Below are positions 6,007 to 43,283 of a stretch of 64,000 nt of DNA, one piece after another (the stretch's first letter is position 1; every line of letters begins with the position of its first letter). The stretch covers positions 7,354 through 71,353 of the forward strand of contig CAZIYD010000002.1 in assembly GCA_964543375.1 (NCBI GenBank), in the 5' to 3' direction. The notes beneath the pieces are model-generated. The model searched no databases, was not told the origin of the DNA, and saw only the letters and a program-made list of their open reading frames with translations. The translations under genes were made by a program, and so were the position numbers. This DNA comes from an uncultured Muribaculaceae bacterium. GTDB lineage: Bacteria > Bacillota_I > Bacilli_A > RF39 > UBA660.

Positions 6007-6609
6007 CTATTCTGAGATCTTCTTTCTATCAGATATGGCCATTTCCAAAGTTAAAGAATCCAAATACTCCATATCTGTTCCAAGAGGAACACCATGTGCT
6101 ATTTTTGATACTATGGTTTTTGTGTCTTTTAAGGTTTTAAGTATATAAAGGGAGGTAGTTTCTCCTTCTATTGTTGGTTTAACAGCGATAATTACTTCTT
6201 TTATTCCTTCTTTTTTTACTCTCTCTATTAAACTATTGATACTTATATCTTCTGGATTAATCCCATTTAAAGGGGAAATTAAACCTCCTAAAACATGATA
6301 TAAACCTTTATAATTACCTGTTTTTTCGAATAATATTAAATTTTTTGCATCTTCTACAACACAAATAGTTTTTCTATCTCTTTTTAAATCGTTACATATT
6401 GAACATTTATCCGTTTCAGTTAGGTTATTACAAATAACACATTTCTTTATTTTGTTTTTTACGTCCTCTATTGATCTTGAAAATTTAATAACGCTTTCTT
6501 CTTCTAAGTTTAAAACAGAAAACGCTAACCTTTCTGCCGTTTTTTCTCCAATTCCTGGCAAAATTTTAAAAGAATCTATTAAGTTTTTTAAGCTTTCTGG
6601 ATAATTCAT
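6007..6609 (-). CDS. recR: recombination protein RecR
   Basis: 200 aa. MNYPESLKNLIDSFKILPGIGEKTAERLAF (HhH) plus C4 zinc finger CVICNNLTETDKCSIC and Toprim region. Conserved dnaX-ybaB-recR order. Confidence 0.95.
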   Translation of the reverse strand: MNYPESLKNLIDSFKILPGIGEKTAERLAFSVLNLEEESVIKFSRSIEDVKNKIKKCVICNNLTETDKCSICNDLKRDRKTICVVEDAKNLILFEKTGNYKGLYHVLGGLISPLNGINPEDISINSLIERVKKEGIKEVIIAVKPTIEGETTSLYILKTLKDTKTIVSKIAHGVPLGTDMEYLDSLTLEMAISDRKKISE

Positions 6610-6910: not shown

Positions 6911-8593
6911 TTATTCCTCCATTTCGATAATACCTAATCCAAAGTCATTTATAGTTTCCTCTAATTCACTATTTGATGTTTCTATTTTGCAAGAAATAGT
7001 TTCTTCTTCTATTTCTTCCATTAGCTCTATTTTTTTGTTATTCTTCTTTAATTCAATGTATTTTGGTCTTAACTCTTTCCATTTATCTTCACTTATCGCC
7101 ACTATCTTGTATTTTTTATTTAATAGTTCACTTACAATTTTTTCTATTTTATTTTTATTTTGATCGTGTTCATAGACTAAACTGTCATATTTGTAAGTTA
7201 ATAAGAGTCTGTCTTCGCTCGCAGCATTAACATTACAATCCATTAAAATCGTTGCAATCGCTTTATATTTGTTTGTTGCTAAATATTTATTTAATTTCAT
7301 AAATGATTTTTTTACTTCATCTTTACAATCTTTATTAGCTAAAGCAATTGTATTGTTTATTAGTGCTTCCTTTAAAGAATAAGAGTACTCGATATTTATT
7401 TTTTGAATTTTTTCTTCATTCTTTTCATCTTTTTGTTCTTCTTTTAAATCTGTTTTGTTTTCTAATTCAATAACTTGTTTAAATTCGTAATTGGCTTTTT
7501 CCTCTTTTTGCTCTTCTTTGTTTGTTAGTTTAAACAAAGATAACTCAAATAATATGTTGGGATTAGATGATTTTTTCATGTTTTCCAATAAATTATTTAG
7601 TTCTTCTATTATTTCGCTTAATTTATCTTTTGAAACACGTTCATCTAAATTTATTAAATCCTCTTTATAGTGAATTGTTTTTTTATCAAAATATTTTTTA
7701 GCATTTTTATATATAAGCAAATTTATTAAAAAATCTATCAAGGTTTCGGTTATAACTTCAAAGTTTTTTCCTTCATTATATAAATCTTCAGTAATCTCTA
7801 TTAGTGAACTTATATCATTTTCAAAGATTTTTTCTAATATATTTATTATTTTTGAAGTTTCTAAATTGCCCGTTAATTCATACAAGATTTCAACTGTTAT
7901 ATTACCATTTGAAAATGAATTTGCTTGATCCAAAAGTCCTATAGCATCTCTAAGAGAACCATCAGAAATTTTGGCTATTTCAAGTAAACAAGCAGAATCT
8001 ATTTCTATTTTTTCTTTTTTTGCTATGGTTTTCAATCTTTTTTGAATTTCAATAATTGGAATTTTCTTAAAATCAAAGCGTTGGCATCTAGAAATTATTG
8101 TAACTGGAATTTTTTGTGGTTCTGTTGTTGCTAAAATAAACATTGCATGCATTGGTGGTTCTTCCAAAGTTTTTAACAATGCATTAAATGCTCCAATCGA
8201 AAGCATGTGAACTTCATCAATAATATAAACTTTGTATTTGCAAAAAACAGGAACTAATGCCGCTTTATTCTTTATTTCTCTTATTTCATCAACTCCGTTA
8301 TTAGATGCAGCATCTATTTCTATAATGTCAGGATTTTCATCTATGGTTTTTGTTTCACAAACCTTACATTTTTTACAAGGTAAACCATTTTTTAAATCTT
8401 CACAATTTATAGTTTTGGCAAAAATCTTTGCAACTGTGGTTTTTCCGGTTCCTCTTGTTCCAGTAAATAAATATGCATGACCAACTTTATTTTCTTTTAT
8501 TGAGTTAGTTAAAGTTTTTATTATTGGATCTTGTCCAATTACATCTTCAAATTCAATAGGTCTATATTTTCTATATAAAGCTTTGTATTGCAT
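6911..8593 (-). CDS. dnaX: DNA polymerase III subunits gamma/tau
   Basis: 560 aa. N-terminus MQYKALYRKYRPIEFEDVIGQD, Walker A GTRGTGKTT, zinc module CEDLKNGLPCKKCKVC and clamp-loader AAA+ core. Confidence 0.93.
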   Translation of the reverse strand: MQYKALYRKYRPIEFEDVIGQDPIIKTLTNSIKENKVGHAYLFTGTRGTGKTTVAKIFAKTINCEDLKNGLPCKKCKVCETKTIDENPDIIEIDAASNNGVDEIREIKNKAALVPVFCKYKVYIIDEVHMLSIGAFNALLKTLEEPPMHAMFILATTEPQKIPVTIISRCQRFDFKKIPIIEIQKRLKTIAKKEKIEIDSACLLEIAKISDGSLRDAIGLLDQANSFSNGNITVEILYELTGNLETSKIINILEKIFENDISSLIEITEDLYNEGKNFEVITETLIDFLINLLIYKNAKKYFDKKTIHYKEDLINLDERVSKDKLSEIIEELNNLLENMKKSSNPNILFELSLFKLTNKEEQKEEKANYEFKQVIELENKTDLKEEQKDEKNEEKIQKINIEYSYSLKEALINNTIALANKDCKDEVKKSFMKLNKYLATNKYKAIATILMDCNVNAASEDRLLLTYKYDSLVYEHDQNKNKIEKIVSELLNKKYKIVAISEDKWKELRPKYIELKKNNKKIELMEEIEEETISCKIETSNSELEETINDFGLGIIEMEE

Positions 8594-8654: not shown

Positions 8655-9083
8655 CTACTTTTTTCTTTGAATTTCAAAAAATTCTTTTATTATATCTTTA
8701 GACTCGTTTTCCATTAAACCGTATTCTATATCAATGTTATTTTGTTTTATTATTACATCTAAACTCTCTTTATAACGGTTGTTCCTAACAGAAGCATAAA
8801 TCTTCTTTATTCTCGTTTCTGCTATCAACCCCATACACATAATACACGGTTCTAGGTTTACAAATAGTAAACAACCATTTAATCTCCAATCGCCAAGTTT
8901 TTTACAAGCCTTTTTTATAGCAATTATTTCAGCATGATCAAACGGATTGTTATTTGATTCTTTTTTGTTGTGTGCTTTTGAGATTATTTTTCCATCACAA
9001 ACAACTATAGCCGCTACAGGTGTTTCATTGTTTTTGAAAGCTTTTTTTGCTTCTTTAATAACTTCTATCATATAAGATTTCAT
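8655..9083 (-). CDS. tadA: tRNA-specific adenosine deaminase
   Basis: CDA-fold zinc motifs HAEIIAI and PCIMC. Start placed at MKSYMIEV (complement 9081-9083), preceded by GGAGG-7nt. The longer ORF in the track (to 9113) starts inside a palindromic repeat and has no RBS. Confidence 0.85.
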   Translation of the reverse strand: MKSYMIEVIKEAKKAFKNNETPVAAIVVCDGKIISKAHNKKESNNNPFDHAEIIAIKKACKKLGDWRLNGCLLFVNLEPCIMCMGLIAETRIKKIYASVRNNRYKESLDVIIKQNNIDIEYGLMENESKDIIKEFFEIQRKK

Positions 9084-9095
9084 TTTGTTCCTCCA

Positions 9096-9176
9096 ATGTT
9101 CCACGTGGAACATAGTTTTTCTTATTAAAATTATTTCCCGGGAAATAATTTACCCTTAATGTTTCACGTGGAACAT
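9096..9176. repeat. composite palindromic repeat unit, copy 1 (ATGTTCCACGTGGAACAT - 17 bp - ATTTCCCGGGAAAT - 15 bp - ATGTTTCACGTGGAACAT)
   Basis: Read directly. Two near-identical 18-bp CACGTG-centred palindromes flank a 14-bp perfect CCCGGG-centred palindrome. An 82-bp near-identical copy lies at 9325-9405 on the other side of the SRP RNA gene. Confidence 0.75.
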
Positions 9177-9178
9177 TA

Positions 9179-9258
9179 AAAATGACGTACACGAATCGGG
9201 TTTGATTGGCTGCTACCTCTCGGTCCTGACCTGGTTATCAAGTGACTCGTTACGTCTC
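9179..9258 (-). ncRNA. ffs: signal recognition particle RNA (small 4.5S-type)
   Basis: Minus-strand sequence GAUAACCAGGUCAGGACCGAGAGGUAGCAGCCAAUCAAACC matches the universal SRP RNA domain IV (E. coli ACCAGGUCAGGUCCGGAAGGAAGCAGCCAAGG). Flanking GACGUA...UACGUC closing helix and a 3' U-run. Length about 80-100 nt, so the ends are approximate. Confidence 0.75.
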
Positions 9259-9262
9259 TTTA

Positions 9263-9291
9263 ATTATATTTTATAAGTTAAAATTAATCAA
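9263..9291 (-). promoter_or_regulatory. promoter of SRP RNA gene
   Basis: Minus strand TTGATT-17nt-TATAAT, ending about 7 nt upstream of the predicted SRP RNA 5' end. Confidence 0.5.
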
Positions 9292-9324
9292 CATTTATTG
9301 TTTTAATCTTTAGTTGGAGAGTTT

Positions 9325-9405
9325 ATAGTTTCACGTGAAACATAGTTTATTTTATCAAATTATTTCCCGGGAAATAATTTCCTCTTAATGTTTCACGTGG
9401 AACAT
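9325..9405. repeat. composite palindromic repeat unit, copy 2
   Basis: ATAGTTTCACGTGAAACAT...ATTTCCCGGGAAAT...ATGTTTCACGTGGAACAT. Ends 2 nt from the gyrA stop codon and lies just upstream of the ffs promoter. Confidence 0.75.
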
Positions 9406-9406
9406 A

Positions 9407-11836
9407 CTATTCTTTTACATTAAAAACAGCGGTTACTAATTGATCTTCTTTTAAGTTAATTAATCTAACTCCTTGGGTTACTCTTCCCATTGTAGATATT
9501 TGATCTATTGGAATTCTTATTACCATACCGCTATCGGTTATTATAATTAGATCCTCTTCTTCCTCGACTATTTTAAAAGCAACTATCTTTCCAGTTTTTT
9601 CTGTTGTGTTTAAAGTTTTAACACCTTTGCTCCCTCTTTTTGTTGTTCTATACTCATTTATTTCGGTTCTTTTTCCGTAGCCGTTTTCACTAACAACCAG
9701 AATTTTGCTATTTTCATCAACTATATTTGCGTCTATACAAACAGCATCTTTATCTAAATTAATTCCTCTAACTCCAGAAGCTGTTCTACCCATTATCCTT
9801 ACTTCTTCTTCATTAAACCTTACCATCTTGCCCTTTGAAGAAGCCATTACAATTTCAGAGTGTCCGTTTGTTTTTATTACAGAAATTAATTTATCTTCAT
9901 CTTTTAGCTTTATAGCAATCTTTCCAGTTTTTCTTATATTATGGAATTCTTCTACGTGACATCTTTTTACTAATCCGCCTTGTGTTGCAAATAATAAGCA
10001 CTTATTTTCTTCATCTTTTGAAACTTTTAATATTGAGGTTATTTTTTCATCTTTTTCTAAAGGTAATAAGTTTACAATTGGTAAACCTTTTGATTGTCTA
10101 CTGAACTCTGGAACCTCATAACCTTTTATTCTATATATTAAACCTTTATCAGAAAACAACATTAAGTAATCATGTGTATTTAACATTAATAGGTTCTCTG
10201 CAAAATCTTCTTCGTTTGTAGTCATTCCTTTTACGCCAGTTCCTCCACGATTTTGAGTTCTATAAGTATCTAGTGGCAATCTTTTTATATAACCTTTATT
10301 TGTTAAAGTTATTATAATTTCTTCTTGTGGAATTAACTCTTCATCGTCAATGTGTTCTATTGAAGACATATCAATTTTTGTTCTTCTTTCATTGGCATAC
10401 TTTTCTTTTATTTCAAGCATTTCTTTCTTAATTATTTCTAAAACCTTTTGAGTATCCGCTAAAATTTCTTCTAATTCTTTTATTAAGATTAAAAGATTTT
10501 TTAGTTCTTCTTCTATTTTGCCTCTTTCTAAACCTGTTAGACGTCTTAATTTCATTTCAAGTATTGCTTCTGATTGTAATTCACTCAATCCAAAACGATT
10601 TTTTAACTCTTCTTTTGCTTTTTGATCATCTTTTGAAGTTTTAATTATCTTTATTATTTCGTCTATATTATCTAAAGCTATTTTTAATCCTTCTAGTATG
10701 TGTTCTCTAGCCTTTGATTTTTCTAGATCAAATTGTGTTCTTCTAATAATTATTGTCTTTTGATAGTCAACATAATGCATAAAAATATCTCTTAAACCTA
10801 AAGTTTTTGGTTTACCGTCTACTAACATAAGTAAGTTTATACCATAAGATATTTGTAGTGGTGTGTGTTTATATAAGTTATTTAAAACAACATTGGCATT
10901 TGCTTCCTTTTTTAATTCAATATTTAATTTCATTCCTTCTAAAGAAGATTCATCGTGTAAGTCGCTTATGCCATCTAATTGTTTATTTCTTATTAACTCA
11001 CCTATTTTTTTTGTTAAATCATTCGTTTTACTTATTTGATATGGGACTTCTGTTATTAAAATTTTGCTTTTCTTACCTTCTTCTTCTATTATTTCAGCTT
11101 TTCCTCTTAATATAATAGATCCTTTTCCTGTTTCATATGCTTTTTTTATACCACTATTTCCTAATATATATCCATATGTTGGAAAATCTGGACCTTTTAC
11201 ATATTGCATTAATTCTAAAACTGTTATCTCTGGATTATCTATGTATGCTATACATCCATCTATTACTTCTCCAAGATTATGTGGAGGTATATTTGTTGCC
11301 ATACCAACGGCTATTCCCATGTTTCCGTTTACTAATATATTTGGAAATCTAGATGGTAATATATTTGGTTCTCTTCTTTGACCGTCATAGTTATCAGAAA
11401 AATCTACTGTATTTTTATTTATATCTCTTAAAATTTCCATAGAAATTTTTGATAATCTTGCTTCTGTATAACGAGATGCAGCTGGGCTGTCACCATCTCC
11501 AGAACCAAAGTTACCGTGTCCATCTACTAGTACGTGTCTATATGTAAAATCTTGAGCCATTCTAGCCATTGAATCATATATTGCTGAATCTCCATGAGGA
11601 TGATAATGCCCCATTACTGCCCCAACAGCATTAGCACTTTTTTGATGCTTTTTTTCTGGCGTCATTCCTTCTTCAAACATTGTGTAAAGAATTCTTCTAT
11701 GAACTGGTTTTAAACCATCTCTAACGTCGGGTATTGCTCTAGCTACTATTACACTCATAGAGTAATCTAAAAATGAGTTTTTAATTTCAGCGGATAAATT
11801 TATATCTTCTATTCTATCTATTATTTTTTCTTCCAT
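9407..11836 (-). CDS. gyrA: DNA gyrase subunit A
   Basis: 809 aa. N-terminus with AIPDVRDGLKPVHRRILY, active-site region, C-terminal beta-pinwheel repeats. Immediately follows gyrB. Confidence 0.97.
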   Translation of the reverse strand: MEEKIIDRIEDINLSAEIKNSFLDYSMSVIVARAIPDVRDGLKPVHRRILYTMFEEGMTPEKKHQKSANAVGAVMGHYHPHGDSAIYDSMARMAQDFTYRHVLVDGHGNFGSGDGDSPAASRYTEARLSKISMEILRDINKNTVDFSDNYDGQRREPNILPSRFPNILVNGNMGIAVGMATNIPPHNLGEVIDGCIAYIDNPEITVLELMQYVKGPDFPTYGYILGNSGIKKAYETGKGSIILRGKAEIIEEEGKKSKILITEVPYQISKTNDLTKKIGELIRNKQLDGISDLHDESSLEGMKLNIELKKEANANVVLNNLYKHTPLQISYGINLLMLVDGKPKTLGLRDIFMHYVDYQKTIIIRRTQFDLEKSKAREHILEGLKIALDNIDEIIKIIKTSKDDQKAKEELKNRFGLSELQSEAILEMKLRRLTGLERGKIEEELKNLLILIKELEEILADTQKVLEIIKKEMLEIKEKYANERRTKIDMSSIEHIDDEELIPQEEIIITLTNKGYIKRLPLDTYRTQNRGGTGVKGMTTNEEDFAENLLMLNTHDYLMLFSDKGLIYRIKGYEVPEFSRQSKGLPIVNLLPLEKDEKITSILKVSKDEENKCLLFATQGGLVKRCHVEEFHNIRKTGKIAIKLKDEDKLISVIKTNGHSEIVMASSKGKMVRFNEEEVRIMGRTASGVRGINLDKDAVCIDANIVDENSKILVVSENGYGKRTEINEYRTTKRGSKGVKTLNTTEKTGKIVAFKIVEEEEDLIIITDSGMVIRIPIDQISTMGRVTQGVRLINLKEDQLVTAVFNVKE

Positions 11837-13880: not shown

Positions 13881-15005
13881 TTAAATGTCAATTTGGTTGT
13901 TTTCTTTTATTTTTTTACTTTTTATATTGAATGTTTTTGCTCCATTTAATACTTTTTTATCTATATTGTTTAAATCAGTAGTTGTAATAAAGGTTTGAAC
14001 GTCTTTTTTGATATATTTTATTATGTTATTTTTCTTGTTTTCATCTAATTCGCTAAAAATATCATCTAATAAAAGGACTGGATAATCTCCTGTTTCTTCT
14101 TTAAATATTTCTATTTCAGCAAGTTTAAGACAAACTATTATTATTCTTTGTTGACCTTGTGAAGCGTGAAGTCTAACATCCTTTTTATTTATATAAAAAA
14201 TTATATCGTCTCTGTGAGGACCATTTATAGTCATACCTAAAAATAAATCTCTTTTAATATTTGAAGATAGTTTTTTATAAAAATTTTCTTTAATATTTGA
14301 TAAATCTTTAAACTCCTCTATATCTATGTTTGTTTTATATTCTAATATTAATTCTCCTTCTTTAAATATTGTTTTATATATTTTTTGTGCTTTTTTATTC
14401 AGTTTTTGAACAAATAAACTTCTTTTTTGATATATTATTGCTCCTTTTTTTGATATTTGTTCATTTATTATAGATAAATAGTCTAAATCTAAGTCTTCAT
14501 ATTTTTTGTTTTTTATATATTCGTTTCTAGTTTTTACAAGCAAATTGTATTCGTTTAATTCAGACAAGTATTTATTGTCTATTTGCGCTATTTCTATATT
14601 TAAGAATTTTCTTCTATATGATGGATTTCCCTTTATTAGATCTAAATCGCTGGGATTAAACATTATTACATTGAAATTTGAAATATAGTTACTTATTTTT
14701 TTAATTATTATATTATTTATTTTTGCACTTTTTCCTTTTGTGTTTATTAAAATTTCTAATTTTTTTAATTCGTTTTTTTGTTCTACTTTACCCATTATTT
14801 TTGTAGCTTGCAATCCATCTTTTATTAGGTGTTTGTCGATTCCTACTCTATGAGATTTAGTTATAGCTAAAACATATATACTTTCTAATATATTTGTTTT
14901 TCCTTCTGCATTTTCACCATAAAAAATGTTTATGTTTGGTGAAAAAGACAAGTTTAAATTTTCATAATTTCTGAAGTTTTTTAATTCTAATTCTTTTAAT
15001 ATCAT
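13881..15005 (-). CDS. recF: DNA replication and repair protein RecF
   Basis: 374 aa. MILKELELKNFRNYENLNLSFSPNINIFYGENAEGKTNILESIY Walker A (SMC-like ABC ATPase), signature and Walker B (LLLDDIFSELD) in the C-terminus. Confidence 0.93.
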   Translation of the reverse strand: MILKELELKNFRNYENLNLSFSPNINIFYGENAEGKTNILESIYVLAITKSHRVGIDKHLIKDGLQATKIMGKVEQKNELKKLEILINTKGKSAKINNIIIKKISNYISNFNVIMFNPSDLDLIKGNPSYRRKFLNIEIAQIDNKYLSELNEYNLLVKTRNEYIKNKKYEDLDLDYLSIINEQISKKGAIIYQKRSLFVQKLNKKAQKIYKTIFKEGELILEYKTNIDIEEFKDLSNIKENFYKKLSSNIKRDLFLGMTINGPHRDDIIFYINKKDVRLHASQGQQRIIIVCLKLAEIEIFKEETGDYPVLLLDDIFSELDENKKNNIIKYIKKDVQTFITTTDLNNIDKKVLNGAKTFNIKSKKIKENNQIDI

Positions 15006-15006
15006 G

Positions 15007-16362
15007 TTATTTTCCTAAACAAAAGTTATTGAATATTTCATCTACTAGTTCATCTTTATAACTCTTTCCTATTACATCTCCAAGTAATTCCCAAATTTGT
15101 TTTAAATCTATTTCTAGTATATCAACAGGCAAGTCTGCTTTTAAACCTTGTTTTAAATCCTCTATATTATCTATAGTTTGTTTTAATGTGCTTATTTGAC
15201 GTATGTTAAACAAATAATTTGGATCTTTTTTATCTATTTCATTCAAGTTGAATTTTTCTATTATTTTATCTTTAAGCTTTATTATATTGTTATCTATTGC
15301 ACTTATTTCTACAATATCTCCATTGAGATTTTCTTTGTTTATTTTTTGATCTAAATCTATTTTATTTATTACAATTATTCTGTTTTTGTTTTTTGTTTTT
15401 TCTAATAATTCATTATCCTCTTTACTAAGTGGCTCGTTATTATTTAAAACTAATATTATTAAATCTGCTTCTTCTATTAAATTTAAAGATTTGTCTACTC
15501 CAATTTTTTCTATTACATCAGTTGTTTCTCGTATTCCTGCTGTATCGGTTATATTTAAAAGTATCGAATTTATTGTAATTGACCCTTCGACAACATCTCT
15601 AGTAGTTCCTGCTATGTCAGTTACTATAGCCTTATCTTCATCTATTAATCGATTTAACAAACTACTTTTACCTACGTTTGGCTTACCCAATATAACAGTA
15701 TTTATCCCTTCTTTTATTAATTTTCCGTTTTCACTTTCTTTAATTATGTTTTTTATTTCTTTTTCTATTATTATAATTTCTTTTGAAATCATTTCTCTTG
15801 TTATAACTAATATATCTTCGTATTCTGGATAATCTATATTTGCTTCTATATTTGCAAGAATTTTAGATATTTTATTTCTTAATATTTCTATCATTTCTGA
15901 AATATTGCCTTTTATTCCATTAATTGCTAACTTTCTTGCTGATTCTGTTTTAGAATTTATTAAATCCATAATGGCTTCTGCTTCTATTAAATCTATTCTT
16001 CCATTTAAAAATGCTCTTTTTGTAAATTCTCCTGGTTCTGCAAGTCTAGCACCATTTTTTATTAATAATTCTAATATCTTATTAGTAGAGGTTATGCCAC
16101 CATGACAATTTATTTCTACTATATCTTCTTTTGTAAAAGTTTTAGGAGATCTCATTACGCTTACTAAAACTTCATCTATTATTATATCTTCATCTTTTAT
16201 AAAGCCATAATTAATAGTATGAGTGTTTACTTTACTCAAGTCTCTACTAAATAGTTTATTTACTATATCAATTGAATTTTTACCACTTAGTCTTATTATA
16301 GATATTGCTCCTATACCTAAGGCTGTTGATATTCCCGCTATTGTGTCATACATAAAAATCAC
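15007..16362 (-). CDS. mnmE: tRNA modification GTPase MnmE
   Basis: 451 aa. G-domain GKPNVGKSSLLN, DTAG, NKID motifs, C-terminal CLGK tetrapeptide typical of MnmE. Confidence 0.95.
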   Translation of the reverse strand: MIFMYDTIAGISTALGIGAISIIRLSGKNSIDIVNKLFSRDLSKVNTHTINYGFIKDEDIIIDEVLVSVMRSPKTFTKEDIVEINCHGGITSTNKILELLIKNGARLAEPGEFTKRAFLNGRIDLIEAEAIMDLINSKTESARKLAINGIKGNISEMIEILRNKISKILANIEANIDYPEYEDILVITREMISKEIIIIEKEIKNIIKESENGKLIKEGINTVILGKPNVGKSSLLNRLIDEDKAIVTDIAGTTRDVVEGSITINSILLNITDTAGIRETTDVIEKIGVDKSLNLIEEADLIILVLNNNEPLSKEDNELLEKTKNKNRIIVINKIDLDQKINKENLNGDIVEISAIDNNIIKLKDKIIEKFNLNEIDKKDPNYLFNIRQISTLKQTIDNIEDLKQGLKADLPVDILEIDLKQIWELLGDVIGKSYKDELVDEIFNNFCLGK

Positions 16363-16401
16363 CCAAATATATTATATCATTAAAAAAAAGAGTATTAAAC
16401 T

Positions 16402-17013
16402 CTAATCTTTTTTCTTTATAGTTATACATCTATTTGGTTCTTCACCAATAGATTCTGTCGATATTCCTGTTATTTTAGAACAGATACTATGTACTAACCT
16501 TCTTTCATAAGAATTCATAGGATCTAAAGTGGTTGTAACTCCAGTTTTCTTAACATTAAAAGCTATATTTTTTATTGTTCTTTCTAAATTTCTTTGTTGT
16601 TTTTCTCTATAATCTTCGACATCTATAATTATATTAACTTTAAAGCCCGTTAAATTTTGAATTGAACTTCTAACTATAACTTGTATAGAATCTAAAGTTT
16701 GACCATTTCTTCCTATTAAAATAGAATTATTGTCTGAAAATAAAGTGAATTTTAAATAATCATCTCTCTTTTTTGCCTCAACATTAGCATCTAATCCCAT
16801 TTTTGATGTTATATCAATAAGTAATGTTTTTATATATTCTATTAAATCGTCTTTTAATATTGCTACAAGTTTAGCTTTCTTTGTTTTAAAAAGACCTCCA
16901 TATTCTTCTGTTTCTTTATATAATATGTCTTTTTCTGAAACATTTAATTCATAAAACATTTTTTCTTTTGCTAACTCTATATTTTTTTCAATATATTCAT
17001 AATTTTTTATCAT
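16402..17013 (-). CDS. khpB: RNA-binding protein Jag/KhpB (Jag_N, KH and R3H domains)
   Basis: 203 aa. C-terminal R3H-like YERRLVHSICSKITGISTESIGEEPNRCITIKKK. Conserved position between mnmE and yidC. Confidence 0.85.
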   Translation of the reverse strand: MIKNYEYIEKNIELAKEKMFYELNVSEKDILYKETEEYGGLFKTKKAKLVAILKDDLIEYIKTLLIDITSKMGLDANVEAKKRDDYLKFTLFSDNNSILIGRNGQTLDSIQVIVRSSIQNLTGFKVNIIIDVEDYREKQQRNLERTIKNIAFNVKKTGVTTTLDPMNSYERRLVHSICSKITGISTESIGEEPNRCITIKKKD

Positions 17014-17014
17014 A

Positions 17015-18028
17015 CTAACCTCTTTTCTTGACTAATACATTTTGTATTACTGTGAAAATATTTGATGCAATCCAATATAAACTTACTGCAGTTGTCATAG
17101 AAAAGGACATAAATACTATCATCACTATAAATACTGTATTCATTATATTCATTTGTTTTTGATTTTCTAAAGAAGATGAAGCACCTTTATTAAGTTTAAA
17201 TGATAGGTATGTTATTATAGCAAGAACCAGTACTATGATTATATAAAACCAAAGACCTTTTTGAATTGCAATTGTTGGTGTCATACCTAAATTAAACCCT
17301 AAAAATTTGCCTTCAAATATCGCAGGAGTTCTATTTATTGCCTCTATAAATGCAAATAATAATGGTATTTGAATTATTGCAAATAAGCAACTAGACATAG
17401 GATTAATATTATATTTTTTATATAAAAGCATAGTTTCTTGACTTTTTTTCATAACAGATTCTTGATCTGTCTTGCCTTCATATTTTTTTTCTATTTTCTT
17501 TATTTCTGGTTGTGCTTTTTTTATATTTTCAGATTGTAAAGCAGTATTTTTTGTTACAGGCATAAGTACAACTCTAATAAGAATACTTATTATTATTAAA
17601 GATAAACCATAGTTATTTAACCATGCACCAACTTTTAATATTAGCCATGCTAATGGTTTTACAAAGACAGTATCCCATAAACCTTCATATTTAGAATCTG
17701 ATAGTTTGTACTCATTACAAGCAGGTAATTTTTCTATATCTACTTTATATTTTTCATATATTTTTATTACATCTTTATTAGTGGGTTTACAAAGTATATT
17801 TTCTGTTAACATTTGACCTGTTTCGTTTGTCTTAAAAATACTACAATTATCATTGCATTCTTTTTTACAACTTTCTTTCGTGTCTTCGTTTATACATATT
17901 TCATCACATTTTTCACATAAATGAATTGCTTCATATTTTACTGGTTTTTTATCTTTATCTACTAGTGTTTTTGAGCATCCAGTTAAAACAATGACAAGAA
18001 ATAGTATTAATATTATTTTTTTATTCAT
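17015..18028 (-). CDS. yidC: membrane protein insertase YidC/OxaA with Cys-rich extracytoplasmic N-terminal extension
   Basis: 337 aa. Lipoprotein signal MNKKIILILFLVIVLTGCS, about 95-aa Cys-rich segment (10 Cys), then the 5-TM YidC core starting near GLWDTVFVKPLAWLI. Conserved position next to rnpA. Confidence 0.9.
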   Translation of the reverse strand: MNKKIILILFLVIVLTGCSKTLVDKDKKPVKYEAIHLCEKCDEICINEDTKESCKKECNDNCSIFKTNETGQMLTENILCKPTNKDVIKIYEKYKVDIEKLPACNEYKLSDSKYEGLWDTVFVKPLAWLILKVGAWLNNYGLSLIIISILIRVVLMPVTKNTALQSENIKKAQPEIKKIEKKYEGKTDQESVMKKSQETMLLYKKYNINPMSSCLFAIIQIPLLFAFIEAINRTPAIFEGKFLGFNLGMTPTIAIQKGLWFYIIIVLVLAIITYLSFKLNKGASSSLENQKQMNIMNTVFIVMIVFMSFSMTTAVSLYWIASNIFTVIQNVLVKKRG

Positions 18029-18036
18029 ATTTACCT

Positions 18037-18375
18037 CTAAAGATTTTTTAATAAATCAACAAGTTCATTTTCTTTTTCTCTATAATCTAAATTTAAGATT
18101 AAACTTCTTGCTATTATTATGTAATCCAATTTTTTTAATTTTTCTCTGTTATTATCAATTATATTTTTTAATTGACGTTTGATTTTATTTCTAACCACTG
18201 CTATTCCTATTTTTTTGGGAATAGATATACCAACTCTATATTTATCTTTTTTTTTGTCTATATAATATATTACATAGTACTTATTTTTTAATAATTTCCC
18301 GTTTTTTATTATGTTATTAAAATCTTCATTAGATTTAACTATATTTATTTTTTTCATTAATACTCCACATAACAA
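18037..18375 (-). CDS. rnpA: ribonuclease P protein component
   Basis: 112 aa. Basic protein with KYRVGISIPKKIGIAVVRNKIKRQLKN (RNR motif region). Follows rpmH. Confidence 0.92.
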   Translation of the reverse strand: MLCGVLMKKINIVKSNEDFNNIIKNGKLLKNKYYVIYYIDKKKDKYRVGISIPKKIGIAVVRNKIKRQLKNIIDNNREKLKKLDYIIIARSLILNLDYREKENELVDLLKNL

Positions 18376-18378
18376 AAA

Positions 18379-18395
18379 ACCACTAAAGTGGTGTT
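18379..18395 (-). terminator. hairpin plus U-run between rpmH and rnpA (partial terminator/attenuator)
   Basis: Minus strand ACCACTTTAGTGGTTTTTTGTT: 6-bp stem ACCACT/AGTGGT followed by a U-run. A partial terminator at this position is known in Bacillus rpmH-rnpA. Confidence 0.4.
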
Positions 18396-18524
18396 CTATT
18401 TAGTTAATTTTTTTCTTCCTTTTTTTCTTCTAGCTGAAACAACACCAGAATCTGCTTTTTTTCGAGCAAAGAATCCATGTATCTTTTTAGCTTTAGATTT
18501 ATTAGGTTGATATGTTCTTTTCAT
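18396..18524 (-). CDS. rpmH: 50S ribosomal protein L34 (ORF absent from the supplied track)
   Basis: Manual translation [42 protein letters not shown] (42 aa) is a canonical L34. RBS GGAGGAAGT precedes the ATG. Located at oriC upstream of rnpA. Confidence 0.9.
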
Positions 18525-18540
18525 ACTTCCTCCTCTTCTT

Positions 18541-18816
18541 AAAACATTATAATTATAAAGGTTAAGCATTTAAAAGTCAATTAAAAAATTATAAACATAT
18601 TAACATACTTGTTGATTAAAAATAATAGTTGTTAATTACAAAAAATATATGATTTTGTGGATAAGTGTATTCTTTTACTATAAAAACTAATAATTAGTTG
18701 TTATTAACTCTGTGGATAAGTTGTTATTAACTTGTTATTTATTATTTTGTTGTTTAATTTTTGAAGAAAATGATTTACAATATAGTTAAATTGTTTGAAA
18801 GTAGGAGGTAAATTTT
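18541..18816. promoter_or_regulatory. oriC region upstream of dnaA with DnaA boxes
   Basis: Two perfect DnaA boxes (TGTGGATAA, the complement of TTATCCACA) at 18657-18665 and 18711-18719, AT-rich flanks and the dnaA promoter region. Confidence 0.75.
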
Positions 18817-20166
18817 ATGGATGAAATAAAATTATGGGAAAATTTTTTAAATTTAATTAAAGATAAAATATCTCCTATATCATATGATACTTGGTTTAGT
18901 GATACAAAATTACATAAAATAGAAAATAAAAAGATATTTATTATAGTTCCCATGAACATTCACAAAAAAAATATTCAAGAAAATTATTCAGATTTATTAA
19001 AAGAAACTATTAACTCTTTAACAGGAACTAATTTTGAATTTATATTTTTATTAGAAGAAGAAATCAATGTTAAAGATGTAAACAATGTAGAAGAGGGTGT
19101 CCCTTTTAATAATCCTATACAAGCTAATTTAAATCCTAATTATACTTTTGATACTTTTGTTATTGGAGAAACTAATAGAATGTCATTTACTGCTGCTTTT
19201 GCGGTTGCAGAAAGACCGGGAAAAGCATATAATCCACTATTTTTATATGGTAGTAGTGGTCTTGGAAAAACTCATTTAATGCAAGCTATTGGAAATTATA
19301 TAATTGAAAATACTAATAAAAAGGTTTTATATATAACAAGTGATAAATTTAAATCAGATTTTATAGCAATAAATAAGAGAAAACATGATGAAAATAATAT
19401 AGAATATGTTGATTCTTTTAAAGAAAAATACAGAAATATAGATGTATTAATAATAGATGATATACAATTTCTAGCAGGCGCTACCGAAAGTCAAACAGAA
19501 TTTTTTCATACATTTAATGAACTTCATCAAGAAGGAAAACAAATAATAATTTCTTCAGACAGATCTCCAGATGATTTAAAATTACTAGAAGAACGTTTAA
19601 GAACTAGATTTAACTGGGGACTTGCAGTAAATATATTTCCACCTGATTATGAACTTAGAATTGAAATATTAAAGAAGAAGTTATCTGTTCACGATATAGC
19701 TAGACCTATAAAAGAAGATGTTCTTGTATTTATTGCTACCAATTGTGCTTCAGATGTAAGAAAGTTAGAAGGAGCATTAAATAGATTATTTGCTTATACA
19801 GCAATGTTTAATAAAGAAATTATAGATATTGATGTTGCTAAAGAAGCCTTAAATGATTTTTTAAGTAGTACTGAATATATAAAAAATAATATTCAAAAAA
19901 TTCAAAAAATTGTAAGTGATTTTTATCAAATAACCGTTGAAGATTTAAATTCTAAAAAAAGAAATAATAAGGTTGCTTTTCCTAGACAAGTAGCAATGTA
20001 TTTATCTAGACAATTAACAGATGAAAGTTTTCCTAGAATTGGTATAGAATTTGGGGGAAGAGATCATACAACGGTAATACATGCATGTAATAAAATTGAA
20101 CAAGAAATTAAAAATAATAAAGAATTTAAAAATACAATAGAGTTGTTGAAAAAGAAGTTAAAATAA
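18817..20166 (+). CDS. dnaA: chromosomal replication initiator protein DnaA
   Basis: 449 aa. AAA+ Walker A GSSGLGKTHL, sensor motifs, C-terminal DNA-binding helix VAMYLSRQLTDESFPRIGIEFGGRDHTTVIHA. Confidence 0.97.
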   Translation: MDEIKLWENFLNLIKDKISPISYDTWFSDTKLHKIENKKIFIIVPMNIHKKNIQENYSDLLKETINSLTGTNFEFIFLLEEEINVKDVNNVEEGVPFNNPIQANLNPNYTFDTFVIGETNRMSFTAAFAVAERPGKAYNPLFLYGSSGLGKTHLMQAIGNYIIENTNKKVLYITSDKFKSDFIAINKRKHDENNIEYVDSFKEKYRNIDVLIIDDIQFLAGATESQTEFFHTFNELHQEGKQIIISSDRSPDDLKLLEERLRTRFNWGLAVNIFPPDYELRIEILKKKLSVHDIARPIKEDVLVFIATNCASDVRKLEGALNRLFAYTAMFNKEIIDIDVAKEALNDFLSSTEYIKNNIQKIQKIVSDFYQITVEDLNSKKRNNKVAFPRQVAMYLSRQLTDESFPRIGIEFGGRDHTTVIHACNKIEQEIKNNKEFKNTIELLKKKLK

Positions 20167-20271
20167 TGTGTATAATAATAACAAAAATGGATTAAATAAA
20201 AGGAATAAATTGAATTATTCACATTATCCACTATAATAATAAAAATATAATAAAAAAGAAAGGAATATAAA
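20167..20271. promoter_or_regulatory. dnaA-dnaN intergenic AT-rich region with a DnaA box-like site (second oriC half / DUE candidate)
   Basis: TTATCCACT (8/9 match) at 20225-20233 within >85% AT sequence. Confidence 0.45.
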
Positions 20272-23947: not shown

Positions 23948-24013
23948 AAATATATTGTGTTTTTATCTTTTTTTTAGTATCATTATATGTATAAGAATAA
24001 AAAGGTGATATAT

Positions 24014-25411
24014 ATGAATGGTAATTTTGATAAAGAGATAAGAGAAATATTTTTAGACGATATAATTCCTAACAGATTTCAACCAAGATTAAATTTTGAT
24101 GAAAAATCTCTTTTAGAATTAGCTGAATCAATAAAGCAACATGGAATAATACAACCATTAGTTTTAAGAAGGCTTGGAGATAAATATGAAATTATTGCTG
24201 GAGAAAGAAGATTCAAAGCATCTCAAATTGCCGGTTTAACCAAAGTTCCTGCTTTAATAGCAGATTTAGATGATAATTCAAGCGCAGAAGTTGCAATAGT
24301 AGAAAACCTACATAGAAAAGAAATGTCATCATTAGAAGAAGCAAAATCTTTCAAGAAACTTTTAGAAAGAGGTATAACACAAGAACAACTTGGTATTCGT
24401 TTAGGAAAAAGTCAATCATATATTGCAAACAAACTTAGATTATTATCTTTGAGTGAAGCCGTGCAAAACGCTTTAGTTCAAGAACAAATATCAGAAAGAC
24501 ATGCAAGAAGTCTTCTATCTGTAAAAGATTCTGTTGAACAACAAAACATCTTAAATGAGATAATTTCAAGAAAATTAACGGTAAAAGAGACAGATGAACT
24601 TATAAAAGAACGATTTGGTGAAGAAGAGGTAGATGAGTTAATTCTACAACCAGAATTATCAAACAATAAAAGTGCAGATATAATGAGTTTTAATCTAGAA
24701 GATTTAAAAAAAGATAAACCTATTCAAGAAAATATATATGAACAAGAAAACATACCTAAACCAACAAATAGTCAAGAAGTTATTAATAATCAACCATTTA
24801 TTCAAACACAACCAGTTTTAAATAATATGGAAAATAACGAAATAAATGTTCCAAAACCATTTGTTTTAATTGATGAAAATTCAAATAAAACAGAAACTAT
24901 TCCAGAACCACATAGAAATACTGAACTTAATCCTCAACTTAATTTAATAAATAAATTAAGTGATCCAAATGAAACCTCAGAATCTATATCTTTTAAAGAA
25001 ACAATTGGAACAATATCAAGCCCTTATGTAATTCCAAAAGCAGATATAGAAACAGATTATTTAAAACCTAGAAACATATTTGATGTAGAAGAAATAAAAA
25101 ATAATGCTCAAAACGTTAATCAAGAAACAAAAACCAGTTTTGATATAAATCAGTTGCTTATTTCTGATTCTAAGCAAGCAGAAATAGAACCTAATAACGT
25201 TCAACCAACTGAAGAAACGGCTCATCAAAATAAATTTATAATGAATTTAAATGAACAACCTAAAACAATATCAGAAAATAAAGATATAAATAATTCAAAA
25301 GAAATGATAAAAACAGTTTTAGACACTATAAAAAATAGCGGAGTTAAAATTGACTATGAAGAATTTGACTTTGAAAGATTATATCAAATAATAATAAAAA
25401 TAGAAAAATAA
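24014..25411 (+). CDS. ParB/Spo0J/Noc-family partition-like protein with long low-complexity C-terminal tail; no parA partner
   Basis: ParB N-domain (IPNRFQPRLNFD, GIIQPLVLRR, GERRFKA) and HTH (ITQEQLGIRLGKSQSYIANKLRLLSL), then about 250 aa of N/E/Q/P-rich sequence. Start placed at MNGNFDK with RBS AAAGGTGA. Flanking DNA encodes no ParA (Walker ATPase). Confidence 0.8.
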   Translation: MNGNFDKEIREIFLDDIIPNRFQPRLNFDEKSLLELAESIKQHGIIQPLVLRRLGDKYEIIAGERRFKASQIAGLTKVPALIADLDDNSSAEVAIVENLHRKEMSSLEEAKSFKKLLERGITQEQLGIRLGKSQSYIANKLRLLSLSEAVQNALVQEQISERHARSLLSVKDSVEQQNILNEIISRKLTVKETDELIKERFGEEEVDELILQPELSNNKSADIMSFNLEDLKKDKPIQENIYEQENIPKPTNSQEVINNQPFIQTQPVLNNMENNEINVPKPFVLIDENSNKTETIPEPHRNTELNPQLNLINKLSDPNETSESISFKETIGTISSPYVIPKADIETDYLKPRNIFDVEEIKNNAQNVNQETKTSFDINQLLISDSKQAEIEPNNVQPTEETAHQNKFIMNLNEQPKTISENKDINNSKEMIKTVLDTIKNSGVKIDYEEFDFERLYQIIIKIEK

Positions 25412-25442: not shown

Positions 25443-26036
25443 ATGAAAAGAAATGGATTTACTTTAGTTGAATTACTGGCAGTATTAATAATATTGATGT
25501 TATTAATAACTATAACTGTGCCACTAATAAGTAATGTTATGAAAGATTCTAGAAAAAAAGCAACAGAAAAATTAATAAGTAATATAGAAGTATCAGCAAA
25601 AAAATATGTAACAGATAATATTAGAGACATGGAAGAATTAAATAAATTTGGTTTTATTAATGTATCATTAAAAACTTTAGTTGAAAACAAATATATTCAG
25701 TCAAATTTAAAAAATCCAGAAACAAAAGAAAACTTATTTATTGACGATATTATTTATGTAACTCTAGATTACAACAATAAATTAGATGTTAAATATGATA
25801 TAGAGCAAAAATCAAAAGCGAAAATAACTCTAAATGGTTTTTTTAATGATAGAGTAAAAGTAGGAACGACTTATTCTGATCCAGGAGCAATTGGATTTGA
25901 TGGAACAAATATGAATAATAAAGTAATGGGAGTTGGCACTATAGATACATCAAAAAAAGGAGTATATAAAATAACATATTCCTATGGTAATTCTAATAGT
26001 ATATTTAGATATGTAATAGTAACAGATGATATATAG
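25443..26036 (+). CDS. type IV pilin / pseudopilin-like protein with C-terminal Ig-like domain
   Basis: 197 aa. Class III prepilin signal MKRNG/FTLVELLAVLIIL (G-1, F+1, E+5), C-terminal segment TTYSDPGAIGFDGTN resembling DUF5011 Ig-like domains. Confidence 0.7.
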   Translation: MKRNGFTLVELLAVLIILMLLITITVPLISNVMKDSRKKATEKLISNIEVSAKKYVTDNIRDMEELNKFGFINVSLKTLVENKYIQSNLKNPETKENLFIDDIIYVTLDYNNKLDVKYDIEQKSKAKITLNGFFNDRVKVGTTYSDPGAIGFDGTNMNNKVMGVGTIDTSKKGVYKITYSYGNSNSIFRYVIVTDDI

Positions 26037-26044
26037 GAGATTTT

Positions 26045-26896
26045 ATGAAAAAAAATGGATTTACTTTGATAGAAGTCTTAGCAGTAATAATACTACTTGG
26101 AGTAATTGTAACTATAGTAGTATCCATAGTAGATGGTGATATTAATCTTGTTAAAGAATATGCTAAAGAAAATCAAATAAAACTAATAGAAGAATCAGCA
26201 GAAATTTATTATTTAAATTATAAAAATGAAATTCCATCTATAGATACTACAAAAATAGCAACAATAACAATTCAAACTTTATATGACAAGGGTTTTATAA
26301 AAGATAAAGATTTAGTTGTCAACTCAAAAGAAACAATTAAAAAAACAGATAAAGTATTAATTTATTTAGTAGATGGAGAATTGTTTACTTTGTATGATAA
26401 GACACAAACTATAAGTTTAATGATAATATTAAAAGGTCCTAGTGAAATAAAAATAAGAAAAGATGGAGAATATACTGAATATGGGGCAGTAGTAATAAAT
26501 ACATTAACAACAACAATAATTGATATTCCACCTTCAAACATATCTGGTACAGTTAATAAATCAGTAGAAGGAACATATACAATTACTTATAGTTATAGTG
26601 GTGCGAGCCCAAAAAGTAGAAAAGTAATAGTAGCACAAGCACAAACAATATCTGATACTACCAAACCAGTAATAACTTTATTAGGAACATCACCTATGAC
26701 TATAGCGAGAGGTTCTGTTTTTACAGACCCAGGAGCAACCGCTACTGATAACTTAGATGGTAATATAACAGAAAGAATAATAAAAAGCGGAAAAGTAAAT
26801 ACAAACGTTATGGGAACGTACTATATAAACTACGATGTTAATGATTCATCTGGTAATAAAGCAATAACCAAAACAAGGATAATAAATGTAAATTAA
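26045..26896 (+). CDS. type IV pilin / pseudopilin-like protein with C-terminal DUF5011-like Ig domain
   Basis: 283 aa. Prepilin signal MKKNG/FTLIEVLAVIILL, C-terminal SVFTDPGATATDNLDGNITERII matching the DUF5011 (bacterial Ig-like) consensus. Confidence 0.7.
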   Translation: MKKNGFTLIEVLAVIILLGVIVTIVVSIVDGDINLVKEYAKENQIKLIEESAEIYYLNYKNEIPSIDTTKIATITIQTLYDKGFIKDKDLVVNSKETIKKTDKVLIYLVDGELFTLYDKTQTISLMIILKGPSEIKIRKDGEYTEYGAVVINTLTTTIIDIPPSNISGTVNKSVEGTYTITYSYSGASPKSRKVIVAQAQTISDTTKPVITLLGTSPMTIARGSVFTDPGATATDNLDGNITERIIKSGKVNTNVMGTYYINYDVNDSSGNKAITKTRIINVN

Positions 26897-41988: not shown

Positions 41989-42065
41989 GGCGGCATTGGT
42001 GAAGTGGTTAACACGCTAGATTGTGGCTCTAGTATACGTGGGTTCGATTCCCACATGTCGCCCCA
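41989..42065 (+). tRNA. tRNA-His (anticodon GTG)
   Basis: Cloverleaf read manually. Extra 5' G-1 pairing with discriminator C73 (His hallmark), acceptor GCGGCAT/ATGTCGC, anticodon loop TTGTGGC giving GTG, T-arm GGTTCGATTCC, encoded CCA. Confidence 0.9.
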
Positions 42066-42175: not shown

Positions 42176-42199
42176 AAAAACGAGATTATCTCGTTTTTT
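42176..42199. terminator. bidirectional terminator hairpin
   Basis: AAAAACGAGATAATCTCGTTTTTT: palindromic stem flanked by A-run and T-run. Serves the minus-strand gene 42198-43283. Confidence 0.5.
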
Positions 42200-43283
42200 A
42201 TTTTACTGAATTATAAGTATTACCTATTTTATAATTATCTTGATATATACTCACTTCACCTAAAGTCATTGATTTAGATCTATATTGTTGTGCATATAAT
42301 ATATTTGATGTTTTTCCATCCCAATTTCTTCCAGAGTCTAATGTCCTAAAATAATATATTTGTTTTCCATTAAATAGAGTCTGTTTATTTCCGTTATACC
42401 AAAGTTCAGCAAATCCAACATTGGGATCGGTAGACATCTTCAAGTGAACAATAATGTTTTCCCATCTTAAACCCCTGGATAGTTCTGGCCCGCTCCATAC
42501 CGTTGTGTGAATTGTTCTCGTTCCGGATGTTTGAGCTGAATTAAAAACTATTCTATCATTTGAAACTCCAAATCCAATAGTAGGACTACCGCCCCAAGGG
42601 GGACCATAAACTTGCGCTACACCAAACCAATCCGTTAATTTAGGAAAATTCTCCGGAAAAAATATAGAAAAACTTATATAGTATTCTCCATTTTCCTCTA
42701 AAAGATTTCTACTTAATGTTTGTGCTCTTGGATCACTTGTTGGAGAACCACTACAAAATTCTTTTGTATCATTATCCAAAACAGTGTACATTCCTACTTT
42801 GTTATTTGGATTTAATGGATCATTTACAACACTTATTCTATTTGGACAAGATTGTTTGTGATACCACTGTGATAAATCTCCTGTTTCAAAATCAGCATTA
42901 AATAATAATTTATCAGTTATGACAGGAACTTCTACTGGCTTAACAGGTTCTTCTGGAACCATTTCTGGTTCTTGGTCTTTTGGTTTTTCTTCAATTATTG
43001 TTGGAGTAACTGGAGTTACAACATCCTCTTTAGGGGAGGTAACCGATTCTTCTTTATTGGGTATAACTGACTCCTCTTTAGTGGAATCAATTATTGTTTC
43101 TTTTTCATCTTCGGAAACAGCCTCTTTAATATTTTCGTTTTTCTCTTCTCTAATATTAGTGGATTTATTTTTATTTATATTAGAGTTCTTTTTTGATATA
43201 AGTAAAAGATTAACAGATAATATAATCAATAACATTACTGTTATTCCAACCAATATTATAATTATTTTCTTTTTATCATACAT
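42198..43283 (-). CDS. membrane-anchored secreted protein with Pro/Glu-rich linker and concanavalin-like (putative polysaccharide lyase) domain
   Basis: 361 aa. N-terminal TM IIIILVGITVMLLIILSV, PEV-rich linker, C-terminal beta-rich domain (WFGVAQVYGPPWGGSPTIGFGV, LWYNGNKQ) reminiscent of heparin-lyase-I-like/PL-type lectin folds. Family not verifiable here. Confidence 0.45.
   Translation of the reverse strand: MYDKKKIIIILVGITVMLLIILSVNLLLISKKNSNINKNKSTNIREEKNENIKEAVSEDEKETIIDSTKEESVIPNKEESVTSPKEDVVTPVTPTIIEEKPKDQEPEMVPEEPVKPVEVPVITDKLLFNADFETGDLSQWYHKQSCPNRISVVNDPLNPNNKVGMYTVLDNDTKEFCSGSPTSDPRAQTLSRNLLEENGEYYISFSIFFPENFPKLTDWFGVAQVYGPPWGGSPTIGFGVSNDRIVFNSAQTSGTRTIHTTVWSGPELSRGLRWENIIVHLKMSTDPNVGFAELWYNGNKQTLFNGKQIYYFRTLDSGRNWDGKTSNILYAQQYRSKSMTLGEVSIYQDNYKIGNTYNSVK

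Follow-up and report, generated by a model that had tools for sequence, protein, structure and literature searches.

Interleaved parS and predicted Noc-binding sites in the origin-proximal gyrA-ffs-tadA interval of uncultured Bacilli

The 64-kb window analyzed here (the whole stretch of 64,000 nucleotides, from contig CAZIYD010000002.1 of an uncultured low-GC bacterium) contains a dense cluster of palindromes at positions 9096-9405, in the interval between gyrA, ffs and a tadA-like deaminase gene. The cluster is bounded on its conserved left side by gyrA (9407-11836, minus strand; stop codon at 9407) and on its conserved right side by the tadA-like gene (8655-9085, minus strand) together with dnaX (6911-8593). 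Inside it lies ffs, which encodes the small signal recognition particle (SRP) RNA (9170-9266, minus strand; Rfam match of 46.4 bits). Four palindromes with a CACGTG core and two with a CCCGGG core surround this gene. The CACGTG palindromes are supported by sequence comparison as canonical-type parS sites, the predicted targets of ParB/Spo0J, and the CCCGGG palindromes are predicted Noc-binding sites (NBS), targets of a Noc-like protein encoded at 24014-25411.

A scan of the whole window with the parS pattern TGTTNCACGTGNAACA, allowing at most 2 mismatches, returned 5 matches against 0.11 expected. Four of them are the CACGTG palindromes, for which a chance origin is rejected and none of which is assigned a strand. 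Site A (9097-9112; TGTTCCACGTGGAACA) is a perfect palindrome located just upstream of the tadA ribosome-binding site; site B (9160-9175; TGTTTCACGTGGAACA) shares 6 nt with the 3' end of the Rfam ffs match; site C (9327-9342; AGTTTCACGTGAAACA) deviates from the pattern at position 1; and site D (9389-9404), which has the same sequence as B, is found 2 nt after the gyrA stop codon. The underlying letters read ATGTTCCACGTGGAACAT at 9096-9113, ATGTTTCACGTGGAACAT at both 9159-9176 and 9388-9405, and AGTTTCACGTGAAACAT at 9327-9343, and TGTTTCACGTGGAACA is the exact reverse complement of the Bacillus subtilis-type parS, TGTTCCACGTGAAACA. An initial annotation of this segment had noted a resemblance of the CACGTG palindromes to parS. 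Comparison with the parS consensus (TGTTNCACGTGAAACA, or TGTTTCACGTGAAACA as given by Jalal et al. 2020) bears this out for all four sites as originally described, with 0, 0, 1 and 0 mismatches to TGTTNCACGTGNAACA in A, B, C and D, respectively.

Under the same threshold, no parS-like site with a CACGTG core was detected elsewhere in the window. The fifth match, TGTTCCAAGAGGAACA at 6076-6091, is weak: it has 2 mismatches, has lost the CACGTG core, lies within a recR-like gene and probably arose by chance. The open reading frame (ORF) called mechanically at 8655-9113 begins at an ATG within palindrome A (window 9083-9113); tadA more likely starts at the ATG at 9085, downstream of a GGAGG motif, and with that start site A would be intergenic. 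A promoter-like site for ffs, TTGATT-17-TATAAT, was recognized by consensus match only at 9263-9291 (minus strand), between parS C and the RNA gene.

For the palindromes interleaved with these sites, the initial annotation offered no explanation; they agree with the NBS consensus TATTTCCCGGGAAATA (Jalal et al. 2020) at 16/16 positions. NBS 1 (9132-9147) is the core of a 24-bp perfect palindrome at 9128-9151, and NBS 2 (9361-9376) is the core of a 24-bp palindrome at 9357-9380; neither is assigned a strand. The palindrome ATTTCCCGGGAAAT occurs in exactly two copies in the window, at 9133-9146 (between A and B) and 9362-9375 (between C and D), and the two NBS of the window are thus both inside the cluster. 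In the literature searched, ATTTCCCGGGAAAT appears in no more than eight papers; five of the six listed are studies of ParB or Noc, and the sixth is on nucleoid occlusion by SlmA. The sites form two parS-NBS-parS (P-N-P) units, at 9096-9176 (81 bp) and 9327-9405 (79 bp), which are about 87-90% identical including the spacers; from centre to centre, parS and NBS are 35 and 28 bp apart in the first unit, and 34 and 28 bp apart in the other. The two units enclose ffs and fill the intergenic DNA from gyrA to the tadA-like gene.

The cluster is located about 9.3 kb from the oriC region (18376-18816, no strand), which is defined by a strand switch, a flip in GC skew and two perfect DnaA boxes (18656 and 18711). 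The window is centred on oriC: long ORFs to the left of ~18.4 kb are all on the minus strand and those to the right are nearly all on the plus strand, GC skew changes sign at 18.0-20.0 kb, and a run of dnaA (18817-20166) and dnaN begins at 18817. The cluster is therefore origin-proximal, in agreement with the original suggestion of an origin-proximal group of four parS sites.

To place the cluster in a comparative context, we collected related loci from one genome per species, requiring an NBS followed by a parS core within 4-34 bp. This yielded at least 120 loci from ~118 assemblies (counted by accession prefix); all counts below refer to the loci listed. Almost all of them come from metagenome-assembled genomes (MAGs) of uncultured gut, rumen or digester bacteria labelled Bacilli, Tenericutes, Mollicutes or "Clostridium sp. 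CAG". The 120 loci contain 500 parS-like and 351 NBS-like sites in clusters of 2-25, with neighbouring sites 18-50 bp apart. In 116 of the 120, no more than 1.5 kb separates the main cluster from gyrA and/or dnaX, in the gyrA-ffs-tadA-dnaX interval, and ffs was present in the same interval in 18/18 related loci tested. Most sites are found between gyrA and ffs and, as in the window, some clusters extend to both sides of ffs.

Conservation between species is limited to the palindromes, in the extended forms aATGTTyCACGTGrAACATt and AAATTATTTCCCGGGAAATAATTT. The 18-bp and 24-bp palindromes are nearly invariant, and the spacers are unrelated between species. Even in L109 and L119, the closest of the loci by gyrA/gyrB or flank similarity, the order and number of sites differ from those in the window. 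Some clusters are regular tandem arrays in which every unit pairs one NBS with one parS: L084 has 12.8 copies of an 80-bp unit and L013 has 8.1 of an 82-bp unit, and the spacers of one array are unrelated to those of the other. The alternation of the two site types is non-random: neighbours are of different type in 395 of 579 pairs, compared with 281.6 +/- 9.9 after shuffling of the labels (maximum of 320 in 1000 shuffles). No clear helical phasing was detected: the parS-NBS centre distances peak at 26, 35-36 and 49 bp, and these peaks are inflated by tandem copies.

The two kinds of site are discrete. Among 742 sites of the shared form TxTTyCzC|GzGyAAxA, 416 are pure parS and 318 pure NBS, and there are 0 parS/NBS chimeras. 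Only 1 of the 500 parS is isolated, compared with 42 of the 351 NBS, and this pattern of clustered parS and additionally dispersed NBS matches the known habits of the two systems. The discrete classes and their differing distributions therefore point to two separate recognition specificities rather than to a miniature inverted-repeat transposable element (MITE). Control loci from metagenomes (other phyla, and Firmicutes with a QKKR Noc of the classical type) have their parS sites next to parAB, and in none of them are NBS interspersed among the parS. In the low-GC lineage, parS is absent from the noc and parAB gene regions, and NBS are essentially absent there as well.

If the 82-bp repeat were a MITE or another selfish element, with only an incidental resemblance to parS and NBS, this would account for the similarity of the two window units, which extends into the spacers, and for the inverted repeats they contain. 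However, the two adjacent copies are the only ones in the 64-kb window, the relatives' clusters occupy the same intergenic interval in the great majority of the loci, and it is the palindromes, not the spacers, that are preserved between species; moreover, the palindromes are exact matches to two independently defined protein-binding consensus sequences. With no dispersed copies found in the window, a fixed syntenic locus and no spacer conservation, this explanation is effectively refuted and we assign it almost no probability, which upholds the earlier preference for parS over a MITE. Another reading is that the palindromes form hairpins in RNA or terminate transcription of gyrA or ffs, or that an unrelated transcription factor uses them as operators, given their intergenic position near the gyrA stop codon and the ends of ffs and the terminator-like appearance, on the plus strand, of palindrome A with a T-run. 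However, on the minus strand, which encodes the genes, the hairpins are not followed by a T-run; the terminator-like match is a single one; the number and order of sites vary freely in relatives (2-25 sites, on either side of ffs); and the sequences are exact ParB and Noc consensus sites. This makes such a role very improbable.

Twelve records with a Bacilli-type gyrA-ffs-dnaX locus and parS/NBS clusters (L009, L010, L017, L035, L042, L047, L052, L063, L064, L071, L101 and L104) are titled Muribaculaceae, Bacteroides helcogenes or Candidatus Scybalousia, the last of which belongs to the Bacteroidales in the NCBI taxonomy; either the labels or the binning of these records look wrong.

The gene at 24014-25411 (plus strand), directly downstream of rsmG (gidB), encodes a Noc-like ParB-family CTPase of 465 aa, with ParB_N and HTH_ParB domains within residues 1-200. 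Its start is the second ATG, preceded by the ribosome-binding site AAGGTGAT; homologues begin at the same point, and a database protein 100% identical to it is also called from 24014. An in-frame upstream ATG (window 23987-24013) would prepend MYKNKKVIY, and both the homologues and AAGGTGAT favour 24014. Among solved structures, the protein matches Noc (7NG0, 193 bits) and B. subtilis Noc (7OL9, 178 bits) with higher scores than Spo0J (6SDK, 164.5 bits), and the best NCBIfam model is nucleoid_noc (TIGR04285), with 273.8 bits compared with 159 for generic ParB. At its C-terminus, 53 residues align with positions 203-255 of the Noc model, the C-terminal end of that model. The Noc-type C-terminal domain is separated from the DNA-binding domain by a low-complexity linker of ~215 aa enriched in N, E, I, P and Q. 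The alignment shows both CTP motifs, GERRxK and ENLHR, to be intact.

In the specificity region, the protein reads GKSQSYIANKLRLLSL...SERHAR, compared with GKGQSTIANKLRLLKL...TERHAR in Noc and GKSRPHIANHLRLLTL...SMGHGR in Spo0J, which gives Q173, K179, S184 and R201 as its specificity residues. Noc specificity has been shown to be set by Q173, K179, K184 and R201, with Q173 recognizing A1 and R201 recognizing C6 of the NBS and with a single Lys at either 179 or 184 being sufficient (Jalal et al.). Given these residues, the protein is predicted to bind CCCGGG rather than CACGTG sites, and should thus be an NBS binder, not a parS binder. The functional link originally drawn between the parS sites and this orphan ParB is accordingly not supported and most likely wrong, given Q173, K179 and R201 and a Noc score exceeding that of Spo0J; the CCCGGG palindromes, not the CACGTG sites, are the predicted targets of the protein.

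The same features extend across its homologues. Among the 120 closest, Q173 is present in 120/120, R201 in 119/120 (the exception being QKNS) and K179 in all but one, and residue 184 is mostly N, G or S. When the best 150 representatives at 50% identity were examined, the residue pattern missed 77, which by eye show GxSQ...SERHAR; the pattern-scorable members have Noc-type residues, bar one QTNR and one QKSK. Lengths in the family range from 227 to 834 aa. Judging by these features, the Noc-like proteins form a large, distinct family that databases label only "ParB/RepB/Spo0J". The QKNR, QKSR and QKGR variants are not listed in the Jalal 2020 supplementary data searched.

An N-terminal membrane-targeting helix was not found in the Noc-like protein, in which 6 residues precede the position aligned to residue 28 of B. 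subtilis Noc; the homologues share short N-termini, with the PNRFQPR motif beginning at about residue 16 in the 150 representatives. The function of Noc is reported to require a 10-aa amphipathic membrane-targeting helix. Because this helix is missing, classical nucleoid occlusion by tethering DNA to the membrane is not expected of the Noc-like protein.

We next consider the protein that would bind parS. Searches of the window and the 120 site-cluster loci with Spo0J and Soj (tblastn) retrieved the Noc-like gene only, and in an exhaustive search of representatives the best 150 were all of Noc type, with no canonical ParB. A profile scan of metagenomes detected more distant low-GC relatives (L135, L137, L138, L140, L147/148 and L154) in which parA and a canonical parB come after a helix-less noc-like gene, with DUF951, ychF and rpsF-ssb-rpsR next in line where the contig reaches far enough. 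The order noc-parA-parB downstream of rsmG is the published ancestral order of the Firmicutes origin (ORI) cluster. The canonical ParB proteins of these relatives (L135-L154) have R173, G or S at position 201 and the N-terminal sequence RALGKGLEELF; by eye, the canonical ParB encoded in L209 (10001-10882) has R173 and S201.

Homologues of this canonical ParB include P0339 and P0293, and look-ups placed these two on the contigs of site-cluster loci L078 and L092. In JAGALD010000065.1, the parS/NBS cluster (L078) is found at ~97.3-97.7 kb, dnaA at ~106 kb and noc-like-parA-parB at ~113.7-116.8 kb; CANQDV010000002.1 (L092/L211) is arranged alike, with a parS/NBS cluster and a noc-like-parA-canonical parB run. 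These two contigs, which combine the cluster with both paralogues, therefore support a model with two proteins. The block parA-parB-DUF951-ychF-rpsF-ssb-rpsR, which follows noc in the more distant relatives, was not found in the 64-kb window. As ssb, rpsF and rpsR are presumably indispensable, the genome must carry the block at some other location, to which parAB may have been moved as well.

The place of parA-parB is occupied in the window by two pilin-like genes, each with an N-terminal methylation motif and a bacterial surface Ig-like domain, directly downstream of noc-like (25443-26896). The same pair is present in L121 (5014-6467) and L122 (5860-7269), and L122 has a similar pilin-like gene between dnaN and mnmG. 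In the window, rnpA-yidC-jag-mnmE (13881-18375) are on the left arm with recF-gyrB-gyrA, and the right arm consists of dnaA-dnaN-mnmG-rsmG-noc. L209 (1-10000) has dnaA on the opposite strand and a single run of rpmH-rnpA-yidC-jag-mnmE-mnmG-rsmG-noc-parA-parB; the ORI cluster may have been disrupted by an inversion around oriC. Three near-perfect DnaA boxes occur in the dnaA-dnaN spacer (20167-20232) and, taken with those upstream of dnaA, suggest a bipartite oriC as in B. subtilis. Loci L122-L127 and L209, which have the helix-less Noc-like gene, encode the sporulation proteins SpoIID, SpoIIR, SpoVG and YabP near the origin, such that at least part of this reduced-genome lineage may sporulate. 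The sole long minus-strand gene of the right replichore of the window (42198-43283) lies beside the single tRNA gene (41990-42062), with a local GC skew of ~0.

Taken together, we consider it reasonably probable that 9096-9405 is a composite, origin-proximal centromere-like region at which ParB and Noc-like clamps would be loaded side by side. The four parS would serve as predicted nucleation and loading sites of a canonical ParB/Spo0J CTP clamp encoded outside the window, and the two NBS as predicted loading sites of the Noc-like paralogue encoded 15 kb away; with parS and NBS 28-35 bp apart in the window, the paralogues would load side by side. Both could then spread into the same flanking DNA, yielding a mixed nucleoprotein complex ~9 kb from oriC. 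The same arrangement recurs at the same spot in >100 related genomes, which indicates that ParB and the Noc-like protein probably assemble together. The best-supported form of this reading is a shared loading platform, in which actual binding, clamp loading and spreading are inferred.

Several observations weigh against such a platform. By tblastn with Spo0J and Soj, the 64-kb window encodes neither a canonical ParB nor a ParA, and in the seven loci of the closest relatives (L121-L127, from five close homologues) there is no parAB beside noc, so the parS-binding partner in the window genome is assumed. With 273.8 bits, the Noc-like protein does not reach the cut-off of 315 set for Noc in NCBIfam, its relatives scoring 285-298, and Ser occupies position 184, where Lys is near-invariant in Noc. 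Finally, each of the 120 loci was selected for at least one NBS-parS pair, which inflates co-occurrence; this selection leaves the synteny, the lack of hybrid sites and the conservation pattern unaffected.

In a rival scheme, the 24014 product is the sole ParB/Noc of the genome and binds both CACGTG and CCCGGG, canonical ParB and ParA having been lost from the clade. In the window and the closest relatives, noc-like indeed has neither parA nor parB beside it, position 184 is atypical for Noc, and dual-specificity variants of the ParB scaffold are known (82 of 362 strong NBS binders). However, deep mutational scanning found R173 to be invariable in parS-specific variants (Jalal et al.), whereas the 24014 protein and all its close homologues have Q173, and each of the 17 ParB and 4 Noc orthologues tested was specific (Jalal et al.). 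The absence of hybrids among the 742 sites, the dispersal of NBS but not of parS, and the separate canonical ParB encoded by two relatives with parS/NBS clusters all argue in the same direction, and relocation is at least as plausible as loss because the missing block holds ssb, rpsF and rpsR. A single dual-specificity protein is thus unlikely.

Tight interleaving of the sites, at 18-50 bp, could also mean that the NBS are roadblocks or insulators, with the paralogue bound there acting mainly to restrict how far ParB slides and SMC is loaded into ffs, gyrA and tadA, not to build a joint functional complex; a comparable idea has been published for RicO, which would limit ParB sliding in Staphylococcus aureus. 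For such a role, though, 1:1 tandem amplification to as many as ~13 units would be needless, and the paralogue, which retains CTP-binding motifs typical of a sliding clamp, would be expected to move off its site once loaded. We regard this function as quite improbable.

Within the shared-platform reading, the candidate purposes of co-loading that we infer are the organization or segregation of the origin, or marking of the origin for division control. Spo0J and Noc of B. subtilis are reported to act jointly in keeping Z rings off the nucleoid, and by analogy a joint origin-marking role of ParB and the Noc-like protein is conceivable. A bolder and distinctly tentative extension is that the alternating arrays are a new kind of bipartite centromere, with ~1:1 loading of ParB and the helix-less, long-linker Noc-derived clamp. 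As clamps that encircle DNA cannot pass each other, the two would form an interdigitated, directly interacting hetero-complex, and in clades that, like the window's, no longer have parA and parB in the ORI cluster, the centromere function might have passed in part or entirely to the Noc-derived protein.

The divergence of ParB and Noc, duplicates of one DNA-binding protein that came to differ in both specificity and function (centromere versus nucleoid occlusion), is the textbook example of its kind, and their sites are usually regarded as belonging to separate systems. In a large group of uncultured Bacilli from gut, rumen and digesters (at least about 118 species-level assemblies), both site types are juxtaposed at one conserved origin-proximal locus, often as 1:1 tandem arrays, and the Noc paralogue has lost the membrane helix on which the known mechanism of Noc depends. 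The components (parS, NBS and a ParB/Noc-family protein) are known; what is new is the arrangement and the altered paralogue. Neither interleaved parS/NBS clusters nor Noc paralogues with a long linker and no helix are described in the literature searched, the coverage of which was incomplete and gives weak evidence of absence. If the shared-platform reading is correct, these bacteria offer a natural system for asking whether two ParB-family clamps share DNA and cooperate or interfere, what Noc does without membrane binding and how the centromere is organized in Firmicutes with reduced genomes. The results also entail a correction of annotation, as the proteins are labelled generic ParB and the parS and NBS sites are unannotated.

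Among known systems, B. subtilis-type parS/Spo0J centromeres share with the cluster the 16-bp palindrome matching TGTTNCACGTGAAACA, the presence of several origin-proximal copies and the expected role in nucleating ParB-CTP clamps, which in Bacillus extends to SMC loading. The parS sites of B. subtilis are single and spread over hundreds of kilobases, whereas here 4 sites (up to ~12 in relatives) are packed into 0.3-1 kb at a fixed gyrA-ffs locus, away from the parAB genes and alternating with the sites of a second protein. Dense parS clusters near parAB in other phyla (control loci L161, L174, L201 and L203) similarly place several parS within a few kb of the origin, but those are beside parAB and lack NBS.

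The similarity to the Noc-NBS system of B. subtilis and S. aureus comprises the identical NBS consensus TATTTCCCGGGAAATA, a paralogue with Q173, K179 and R201 and with Noc-like N-terminal, DNA-binding and C-terminal domains, the location of its gene directly downstream of rsmG, and the isolated NBS in relatives. Unlike Noc, however, the Noc-like protein lacks the ~26-residue N-terminal extension that includes the 10-aa helix, residue 184 is not Lys, and the linker is variable in the family (~100-300 aa or more); the NBS, in turn, are concentrated among parS sites and not only scattered. A parallel in organization is offered by RicO-ricS and ParB-parS of S. aureus, where two origin-proximal site families and two proteins jointly organize the origin in an organism without ParA. 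There, ricS and parS are 5-12 kb apart and RicO is not a ParB paralogue, whereas in the clusters described here the two site types are 18-50 bp apart and both proteins are expected to be ParB-family CTP clamps.

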